Shown one piece after another: positions 29,108 to 30,245 of a stretch of 64,000 nucleotides of DNA. Source of the DNA: Lophium mytilinum (lineage: Eukaryota); NCBI GenBank assembly GCA_010093605.1, contig MU004182.1, forward strand, positions 1,335,032-1,399,031, written 5' to 3'. Under the pieces are notes generated by a model. The model saw only the letters and a list, made by a program, of their open reading frames with translations. It searched no databases and had not been told where the DNA came from. The first letter of the stretch is position 1. Each line of letters begins with the position of its first letter. A program made the translations under genes and the position numbers.

Positions 29108-30245
29108 CTAAGGCCACACTCGCGTATCTGCATCCGTGGCGTCCTGTGAGAGGAGGAACACGACTTCATCCAAGTATGTTTTCACTCCTGTTTCCCACGT
29201 CTTGCCCGCCTTCTTGAGCTCGATCAGCCCACGACACTTCTCGACGGCATCGCGGCAGCCAATCATGCTGTTGAACTGGTCCAGGTTGGCCAGATTTGTC
29301 GGATCGGGGATCGGGGTATCGGCGTGATCGTACAGCTCGTGATGGTGGTCGTCTTGTCCATTGTAGACGTGGAAGTTCTCGATTGGGCCCCATTTGTCGA
29401 CGACACCGGGCTGAAATTGGAGGGGATCTGGCACAGTGGTATTGTCAGATGGTTTCAACCACCTATGCCACCGTGTGATGGAAGAAAGAGATCCTGCGTT
29501 GCATCTTACCGTCGGAGACCTTCGCTTCAGGGTTCAGCAACGTGCGTCTCGTGTGCCCTAGAGCGTAGGAATCTTGTATGATATGGAACATGCTGCCTAG
29601 AGCCCGCCGTGGTATATCCAAGGCTTCAAACGCCGACTCACCAGATAGCAGATAGCGCAGCGTCCCCCAGTTGGCAGGCAGCGAGAAGTTAGGACAGAAT
29701 TCGGCCATATCGGTCTTGCTGATGACTGTATCTGGGGTAATGCCTTCCTCTCCATTGGCGAGTTTCCACAGGACGCTGAGCCATTTTATCAGTTTTGTTT
29801 TGGTCTCCCCTGGCTTCTCTCCAAACTTGGAAGCCATACAGTGTAGGAACTGAAGGTCGCCGTAGTGGGAGCGCCCGGTCGGGTTCTGCATCTTGTCGGA
29901 TTTGTCCTTTTTCCATTCGGATTCTCCTGCCTTGTAATAGTAGCCCCACGTCCATCCTGTCGAGTAGGTGTGATTTGCGTCGGCGTAGTCGTCAAAGAGT
30001 AGACAAGCGGGATCGTCGTTCCACACGACTCCCCGAATGTACTCCCAGTCAGCGTTGCTGGCACTTTCTAGTGTAGTCCCTGGAGCGACGTTGTAACCTG
30101 TACTGACCAGGGCAGCCAGAGTGATAGACTCGTGAAGAGGAGAGTGTATCCAGCCTCCCGGCCCACCCGCAACCGCGAAGTTTACTCCATATTCTTTCCT
30201 CGCCGCCATATCTTGTGCGTCCTGGGAATGCGATTCATGGGCCAT
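29108..30245 (-). CDS. Hypothetical 351-aa protein, putative Zn-dependent phospholipase C/P1 nuclease/Het-C-like fold; intron 29428-29509
   Basis: The GTAAGA...CTGAC...CAG intron joins two ORFs in frame. Spaced metal-ligand-like motifs: HESIT, GVVWNDDP, RSHYGDLQFLH, LGSMFHIIQDSYALGH, QDDHHH. The fold assignment rests on motif pattern only. Confidence 0.75.

Follow-up and report, generated by a model that had tools for sequence, protein, structure and literature searches.

Regulated cell death in fungi is explained by few effector types, namely the HeLo, HET/TIR and patatin domains and gasdermin with its protease, and to our knowledge gasdermin is the only one of these that is switched on by a neighbouring protease. 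In enzymes of the phospholipase C (PLC)/P1 fold, including the Bacillus and Listeria PLCs and P1 nuclease, the free alpha-amine and carbonyl of residue 1 complete one metal site. The sections of Petrisic et al. (2023, PMC10576769) on processing describe Listeria PC-PLC as an inactive pro-enzyme whose 26-aa pro-peptide is cut by Mpl; the W1F form is active, other W1 substitutions are inactive, and one residue before W1 abolishes activity. In the fungal HET-Q1/HET-Q2 pair, as set out in the text of Clave et al. (2022, PMC8851545), a latent executioner gene adjoins a gene for a leaderless S8 protease. Here we describe a pair of genes with features of both systems in a 64,000-nt stretch of Lophium mytilinum DNA (assembly GCA_010093605.1, contig MU004182.1, positions 1,335,032 to 1,399,031; hereafter the window, numbered from its first base). 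A PLC-like gene occupies 30245..29108 on the minus strand, and the next gene downstream on the same strand, 790 bp away, encodes a leaderless S8 subtilase with an intact catalytic triad. We put the probability at about one half that the PLC-like product is a cytosolic zinc-hydrolase zymogen of the PLC/P1 fold that is switched on when the adjacent S8 subtilase removes residues 1-22.

The two proteins would form a two-step proteolytic switch. The S8 zymogen, which has a pro-region of its own, would first be converted to active protease and would then cut the PLC-like zymogen between N22 and F23, upon which the free amine of F23 would complete the third metal site and yield an active tri-metal (zinc) hydrolase. 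While residues 1-22 remain attached the enzyme would be off, because the residue-1 amine is needed for the metal site. The likeness to Listeria PlcB/Mpl lies in the zinc PLC-fold enzyme, the short N-terminal pro-peptide (26 aa there, 22 here) and the protease gene nearby. However, PlcB is Sec-secreted and Mpl is a thermolysin-type metalloprotease, whereas here both proteins are leaderless, an S8 subtilase is the candidate protease, Phe or Met would stand first in the mature protein, and sequence similarity to the Pfam family Zn_dep_PLPC stays below threshold. HET-Q1 differs in being a pore former with a C-terminal inhibitory piece, whereas the protein described here would be an enzyme with an N-terminal inhibitory piece; HET-Q2 (366 aa) is without the long pro-region and C-terminal beta domain that the window S8 protein possesses. 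The HET-Q1/HET-Q2 paper (PMC8851545) does not contain the word 'phospholipase'.

The PLC-like gene is made of two open reading frames (ORFs) in different frames, of 260 codons (30245..29463) and 116 codons (29458..29108), which are joined into a product of 351 aa. Exon 1 (29510..30245, minus strand), identified from the ORF, a splice prediction and an RNA joint, comprises codons 1-245 and the first base of codon 246, and exon 2 (29108..29427, minus strand) comprises codons 246-351 and the stop. The 82-nt intron between them (29428..29509, minus strand; GTAAGA...CTGAC...CAG) and the length of the product follow from the full-length homologues (344-367 aa), which run from '...EAKVSD' into 'DPLQFQPG...'. 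The intron is spliced out in public RNA-type contigs of runs X3 and X4 (joint 29427>29510), which come from one study and are 95-99% alike; a contig from a relative (90-95% alike) in metatranscriptome X6 has its joint at 29428>29512. One X3 contig is unbroken from 29510 to 30415 and covers the 5' leader (30246..30415, minus strand) without a joint, and three in-frame stops precede the ATG at 30245. Because of this unbroken leader and these stops, an upstream exon adding a signal peptide, the objection left open in an initial annotation made from the DNA letters, is ruled out. The leader also contains a small upstream ORF of 13 codons (MAKLRSFAHDTDR; 30363-30404, minus strand), in the frame of the main ORF with stops between.

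No signal peptide was found in the PLC-like protein, the longest hydrophobic run within its first 40 residues being 4. Instead, it begins with a polar extension of 22 codons (M1-N22, MAHESHSQDAQDMAARKEYGVN; 30245..30180, minus strand), a putative pro-peptide whose last six residues, KEYGVN, occupy the conserved positions P6-P1 of the junction described below. Bacterial homologues carry a Sec leader at this place, so that a polar pro-peptide does stand where a signal peptide might be expected, as the initial annotation had proposed. The extension is followed by the F23 codon (30177..30179, minus strand), which would encode the first residue of the mature enzyme, the counterpart of W1 in the zinc PLCs and P1 nuclease.

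The remainder of the protein contains the motifs H38-E39, W75-N-D77-D78-P79, S126-H127...H135, H221-x3-D225-x5-H231 and H275-x3-D279. The fourth of these (HIIQDSYALGH; 29553..29585, minus strand) is the predicted core metal-binding motif, and the last falls inside the His cluster DDHHHELYDH of exon 2, which also encodes the C-terminal helices. The ORF and all motifs quoted in the initial annotation are present at the positions given there, and their conservation is beyond chance: in a 45-sequence alignment extending to bacteria at ~26% identity, no substitution occurs at H38, E39, W75, D77, P79, S126, H127 or H135, and H221, D225 and H231 are kept in 90% or more of the sequences. A full-length alignment likewise shows no substitution at H275 and conservation of 90% or more at D279. 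In their spacing, H221-x3-D225-x5-H231 and H275-x3-D279 correspond to H118-D122-H128 and H142-E146 of B. cereus PLC and to their P1 equivalents, and we take the complete series (N-terminal residue, H, D, H, H-x3-D-x5-H, H-x3-D/E) to be the ligand pattern of the PLCs as well. By this comparison, the nine metal ligands of PLC/P1 type, with the spacings H-x3-D-x5-H and H-x3-D/E, appear to be present. Four His and three acidic residues are counted by Zhang et al. (2012, PMC3482391).

Relatives of the PLC-like protein comprise 114 proteins of similar length and 31 longer ones, and a profile search of 1.84 billion representatives retrieved 1444 clusters (50% identity) at E<=0.001, 546 of them at E<=1e-30. 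Nevertheless, a Pfam scan of the window ORFs gave nothing for this gene at E<=1, and no model in NCBIfam or PADLOC matches the domain. The only recurrent Pfam family is Zn_dep_PLPC (PF00882), which is found in seven of the 45 aligned members, always below threshold and always over the H-x3-D-x5-H stretch; no member reaches its gathering cut-off of 26.8 bits (best 19.4 bits, E 0.0011), and the model gave no match in two bacterial genomes. None of the 45 matches Het-C (PF07217) in Pfam. Sequence searches of the PDB returned chance S100 matches with the profile and one unrelated chain in a phmmer search with the homologue P0109.

The Het-C/Tox-HET-C/VWA7_N domain (PF07217, PF25107) is predicted to share the PLC/P1 fold and occurs in fungi and in bacterial toxins beside the metallopeptidase of PVC, an extracellular contractile injection system (eCIS), according to the section of Zhang et al. 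(2012, PMC3482391) that treats it. Language-model features place the Het-C/VWA7_N and Zn_dep_PLPC clusters near the PLC-like family (0.92-0.89). However, hhalign against four Pseudomonas Het-C proteins gave a probability of 22% over 19 columns around the H-x3-D-x5-H stretch, and Het-C has the spacing H-x3-D-x3-H where the PLC-like family has x5, as do PLC and P1. Since no Pfam, NCBIfam or PADLOC model matches, the spacing and predicted fold are of PLC/P1 type and the Het-C spacing differs, the protein is best filed as a member of a new, library-unnamed family of the probable PLC/P1 fold, with Het-C as a likely relative. The PLC/P1 part of the original 'PLC/P1/Het-C-like' label is thus retained, and Het-C is dropped as the family. 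In leaderless Pseudomonas Het-C proteins (L161-L166), 20-45 polar residues precede the stretch 'L-R-F-E/D/S-A-G-x-G...A-T-H', which resembles the 'R|Y/F-E-V-E-G...V-H-E' start of the PLC-like family. N-terminal gating of the same kind may therefore extend to the Het-C family.

The AlphaFold model of a homologue 59% identical to the window protein (P0022, built on 45 sequences) has a predicted local distance difference test (pLDDT) score of 89 and a predicted template modelling score of 0.89. Foldseek found no match for a predicted model in the PDB (lowest E 0.93, with S1 nuclease only 49th in the list at E 3.6). In an exhaustive VIA-align search with the P0022 model, six members of one superfamily top the list: C. 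absonum alpha-toxin (1olp, 8.1), B. cereus PLC (1ah7, 7.6), the nuclease SmNuc1 (8qjl, 7.4), Listeria PC-PLC (8cqm, 7.3), the nuclease 3w52 (6.9) and S1 nuclease (5fb9, 6.9); the seventh and next entry, at 3.7, is unrelated. The predicted all-alpha fold can thus be superposed on solved zinc PLCs and S1/P1 nucleases, and ligand spacing and predicted fold together appear to match these two groups only. The predicted all-alpha fold is shared with the zinc PLCs (PF00882; B. cereus PLC and the N-domain of clostridial alpha-toxin), whose mature end is made by cleavage, as that of the window protein would be. The window protein exceeds them by ~100 residues and has a beta-hairpin region as well as a long insert that separates the ligands D77 and H135. 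Structural alignments of the window model begin at residue 23, which is set against residue 1 in 1olp and against residue 2 in 1ah7, and those of P0022 begin at residue 20, set against residue 2 in both; confidence in either model is low in this part.

The position of F23 as the mature N-terminus is supported by the sequences of four independent architectures, which all appear to start the domain exactly there, each providing a cut. For the Sec-secreted bacterial forms, a hydrophobic leader ending in a small-x-small site was recognised in 66 of 80 genome loci. The residue after that site is F (31), W (19), H (9) or Y (7), and among the 66 loci position +3 is Leu or Ile 41 times and position +5 is Pro 48 times. 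Inspection by eye revealed the same pattern in five of the remaining 14 loci, whereas seven are leaderless, one of these truncated. In 36 longer relatives analysed with Pfam, the domain directly in front is Peptidase_C70 (11), eCIS_core (10), Trypsin_2 (1), S8 (1) or none (13), and Peptidase_C70 precedes the PLC-like domain in 13 of the 31 longer proteins mentioned above. The C70-fused toxins have G|F/Y/H at 20 of 22 anchored junctions, in the pattern '...EG|F/Y-Q/E-I-E/Q-G-P', and the toxins fused to eCIS_core (a DUF4157 zincin) have R/K|Y/F/W at seven of eight, in the pattern 'R/K|Y/F/W-E-x-E-G', both counts being read by eye. C70 peptidases cleave after Gly; a 2021 effector-protease review (PMC11475232) bears out only the self-processing of AvrRpt2.

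In the fungal proteins, the fourth architecture, the domain is preceded by a polar extension (median 23 aa) that ends in a G-x-E-V-x-x-x|M/F-S/A-I/V-x-G-G junction. This motif is found in 77 of 83 homologues, with M, F, Y, I or L at the F23 position. Among the 77, Gly occupies P7 in 29, Glu occupies P5 in 37 and V, I or Y occupies P4 in 52; P1 varies, and P1' is Met in 50 cases and Phe in 17. The search pattern included the P1'-P3' classes, and P4-P7 lay outside it. In the four metagenome loci closest to the window (L001-L004, 78-91% identical), KEYG[VL]N|F is kept, while the first 16 residues of the extension drift. Among these relatives the extension evolves faster than the rest of the protein, nonsynonymous/synonymous codon differences ranging from 5/2 to 15/2 in the extension and from 16/33 to 38/65 in the mature part. 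The initial annotation had offered F23 or W32 as the mature end. The latter position is W, E, S, G or L among the same relatives and was rejected; because KEYG[VL]N|F is kept while W32 varies, F23 is the candidate end.

The frequent Met at P1' (50 of 77), with Met also at P1 in 18, could mean that most fungal orthologues make the mature end by translation from an internal Met. Such a start is impossible in the window protein and its relatives because they have Phe at that position, and the upstream G-x-E-V motif is conserved at the protein level. An initiator Met before Ser or Ala would in any case be removed, which would shorten the end by one residue. This route is therefore extremely unlikely, and cleavage of a longer precursor remains the preferred origin of the F23 end.

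The candidate for the cleaving enzyme is the adjacent gene (26026..28317, minus strand; exons 28317-28025, 27958-26238 and 26156-26026), which is separated from the PLC-like stop by a spacer of 790 bp (28318..29107) and encodes a KP-43-like S8 subtilase of 714 aa. RNA-type contigs show a joint at each of its two introns. In the protein, a pro-region of ~190 aa precedes the KP-43-like catalytic domain, and a beta domain forms the C-terminal part. The motifs VADSGFD (Asp), GHGTHV (His), NNSWG (Asn) and SGTSQATP (Ser) do not vary among 38 sequences. No hydrophobic leader was found in it. The initial annotation had called for a cytosolic protease, and this leaderless product, syntenic across three fungal classes, supplies a candidate.

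An S8 gene lies directly downstream of the PLC-like gene in all four of the closest metagenome loci, L001-L004. These are the four of 80 metagenome loci with an S8 neighbour; among the others inspected, L012, L013, L018 and L019 hold very long bacterial-toxin-like frames, and several are too short. The pairing recurs in 22 other contigs or genomes from Dothideomycetes, Sordariomycetes and Lecanoromycetes, in addition to six fused gene models. Six pairs have consecutive locus tags (Xylographa MMC26_001416/17, Heterodermia Q9195_009561/60, Neonectria AK830_g3276/75, Stylonectria G7046_g953/54, F. sarcochroum FSARC_6372/73 and Elsinoe D9617_12g037980/70), and for 16 further pairs both genes lie on contigs of equal size.

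The six fused models (P0115-P0120, 699-1094 aa; Pyrenochaeta, Cercospora, two Fusarium, Microdochium and Colletotrichum) could be taken to mean that PLC-like domain and S8 protease form a single protein that processes itself in cis, as bacterial relatives that carry their protease in cis might also suggest. However, the window has a stop at 29108-29110 followed by the 790-bp spacer, two separate genes are annotated in at least six other genomes, the six models have mutually unrelated linkers, and the S8 part of each begins at its own conserved Met (MASITVNGN-like). No RNA contig bridges the spacer: PLC-like contigs end at 29027-29181 and the X6 S8 contig starts at 28453. The four runs contain no RNA-type contig over 28464-28925, which alone is no evidence of two transcripts. 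A single fusion protein is thus very improbable. The stop codon in the window, the conserved internal Met and the RNA contigs suggest that the fused database models are annotation merges, and the two-gene arrangement remains the preferred one. A seventh database entry, P0266, also fuses PLC-like and S8 parts, and the names 'serine protease abc transporter b family tagd' (P0041) and 'serine racemase' (P0310) look like annotation errors.

The end of the S8 pro-region is near-invariant ('LDSVNRIEEVRPxxLxN', consensus of 38 sequences). Residues 181-186 of the S8 protein, RIEEVR, lie at window positions 27694-27711, just upstream of NDQAR (27664-27678), and their E-V resembles the P5-P4 'E-V' of the zymogen junction. 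If the S8 protein cuts itself in the RIEEVR region, its own site and its proposed substrate site would look alike.

Several observations weigh against cleavage at F23 as the switch. The predicted first residue of the Sec-secreted forms lies ~41 aa (median) before the H-E motif, compared with 15 for F23, the two positions being at best tentatively equivalent. H34, a conserved residue in H-x-P-x-H-E, could serve as a substitute ligand. Long fungal paralogues have domains of 130-220 aa before the same aromatic residue and no protease known; therefore, either these proteins are processed too or a free N-terminus is not obligatory. Residues 1-18 of the P0022 model have pLDDT below 50 and residues 21-30 average 54, while residues 1-33 of the window model are below 50; because neither model is reliable at the N-terminus itself, the match between F23 and W1 is no more than suggestive. 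S8 synteny is seen only in the clade whose members share at least 49% identity with the window protein. Finally, the same runs contain RNA-type contigs of both genes, so that the switch must be kept off by the S8 pro-region or by another factor.

Some of these points would equally fit a protein whose 22 residues are a disordered tail and whose full-length form is already active, the S8 gene being linked through shared regulation, as a target or by a joint nutritional role. The poor conservation of the first 16 residues, the whole domains in front of the same residue in the long paralogues and the possible replacement of the amine ligand by H34 all favour such a tail. However, the domain begins at exactly the F23 position in four architectures, each with a cut, and P6-P1 are conserved while the rest of the tail drifts. 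A joint extracellular role is unlikely because both proteins are without leaders. Moreover, one extra N-terminal residue suffices to abolish the activity of Listeria PC-PLC, as stated in the account cited above (PMC10576769). An inert tail is therefore improbable, and a pro-peptide that blocks the enzyme is the reading we prefer.

The active enzyme would most likely act on membrane phospholipids and less likely on nucleic acids, in either case as a self-inflicted cell-death or defence effector. Phospholipid is favoured because PLCs lead both structural lists, the only Pfam family matched is that of the PLCs, and paralogues carry an aegerolysin-like lipid-binding domain. This domain, of ~130 aa, precedes the catalytic domain in the fungal proteins P0121, P0124, P0129, P0130, P0136, P0148, P0166 and P0174 (505-765 aa), in one copy each and two in P0166, and is again joined to it at a conserved aromatic residue ('N|F-S-I-G-F' or 'K|Y-E-I-G-F'); the assignment is based on a Pfam match at E 0.023, Atlas features of 0.94 and structural TM values of 0.81/0.85. 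A different N-terminal domain of ~200 aa precedes the PLC-like domain in P0127, P0128, P0132, P0140 and P0141.

The same gated zymogen might instead release a P1/S1-like nuclease acting on RNA or DNA, and nucleases do stand among the six top matches of the P0022 model. However, the structural list obtained with the window protein's own model is led by the three PLCs only, and S1-P1_nuclease (PF02265) matches 0 of 45 members at E<=10, as against seven for Zn_dep_PLPC. The S1/P1 nucleases are also secreted glycoproteins without a sequence match to this family. The fusion to an aegerolysin-like domain likewise argues against a nuclease, as does the metagenomic protein P0254 (1169 aa), in which a third protease class is linked to the PLC-like domain together with a lipase-like alpha/beta hydrolase, a further hint of lipid targets. 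The secreted bacterial genes, moreover, have no conserved neighbour, including any immunity gene, among 236 flanking ORFs, the largest cluster covering three loci. A nuclease is thus rather unlikely, and a phospholipase remains the favoured product of the switch.

The initial annotation had raised a horizontal origin as a possibility, and a phylogeny with bacterial homologues lends it support. The tree contains 76 chosen rows of ~390 sequences (35 fungal, 17 C70-linked, 7 eCIS-linked, 11 secreted and 6 leaderless bacterial) and was obtained by a quick IQ-TREE search, unrooted and with support from the SH-like approximate likelihood ratio test (SH-aLRT) only. All fungal sequences and the C70-linked bacterial domains form one clade (SH-aLRT 100), the S8-linked fungal genes group as a clade of their own (SH-aLRT 100), and the eCIS-linked, leaderless and secreted bacterial forms fall outside the fungal/C70 clade. 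Transfer from bacteria to fungi appears to be the simpler reading because bacterial diversity lies on both sides.

The module would then descend from bacterial polymorphic-toxin cassettes with a protease directly before the same toxin domain, and in fungi the cis protease would have been replaced by a separate protease gene. The likeness to bacterial polymorphic and eCIS toxins lies in the domain itself, which forms the C-terminal module behind Peptidase_C70 or eCIS_core/DUF4157, and the C70-linked forms have their nearest relatives in the fungal genes; in contrast, the fungal protease is a separate gene of another catalytic class, and the fungal protein has no trafficking domain or secretion signal. 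Bacterial relatives of the S8 protein itself (P0356, P0362, P0369 and P0391, from Gandjariella, Nocardiopsis, Mycolicibacterium and Vitreoscilla) have ~618-695 aa and 37-39% identity. S8 relatives are also found in Penicillium and Aspergillus, where no PLC-like partner occurs among the similar-length homologues, and these may pair with other effectors.

Nearby ORFs encode a HET-domain protein (37171-37803, minus strand; E 3e-26), an F-box protein (38656-39180, minus strand) and two berberine-bridge-like FAD_binding_4 proteins (23449-25008, minus strand, and 33732-34781, plus strand). No NLR-type gene was found among the ORFs scanned, from 18 to 42 kb of the window.

In the portions of main text covered by a literature search, the family, the toxin domain and the PLC-like/subtilase pair are undescribed; these include PMC3482391, PMC8851545, a 2025 review of fungal cell death (PMC12881547), the eCIS toxin study of Danov et al. 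(2024, PMC11297309), PMC10576769 and PMC11475232. The present comparison defines a large family, the 1444 clusters above, without a name in any library searched, accounts for the unannotated C-terminal domain in many eCIS_core (DUF4157) and C70 toxins, and flags six public gene models as wrongly fusing two genes.

Tentatively, and at somewhat lower confidence than the zymogen itself, we suggest that the pair may be a second executioner module of filamentous ascomycetes, independent of gasdermin and domesticated from a bacterial protease-toxin cassette. The releasing peptidase, at first in cis, would have given way to a trans-acting protease gene under separate control, so that a delivered toxin became a self-directed death or immune switch. 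If this is true, fungi would possess a second protease-gated executioner, with a zinc PLC-fold enzyme as its effector, and there would be a simple chemical reason for the gating, since the metal site cannot be completed without a free alpha-amine. The locus would then show how fungi, once they had received a bacterial toxin cassette, rewired it for self-control.

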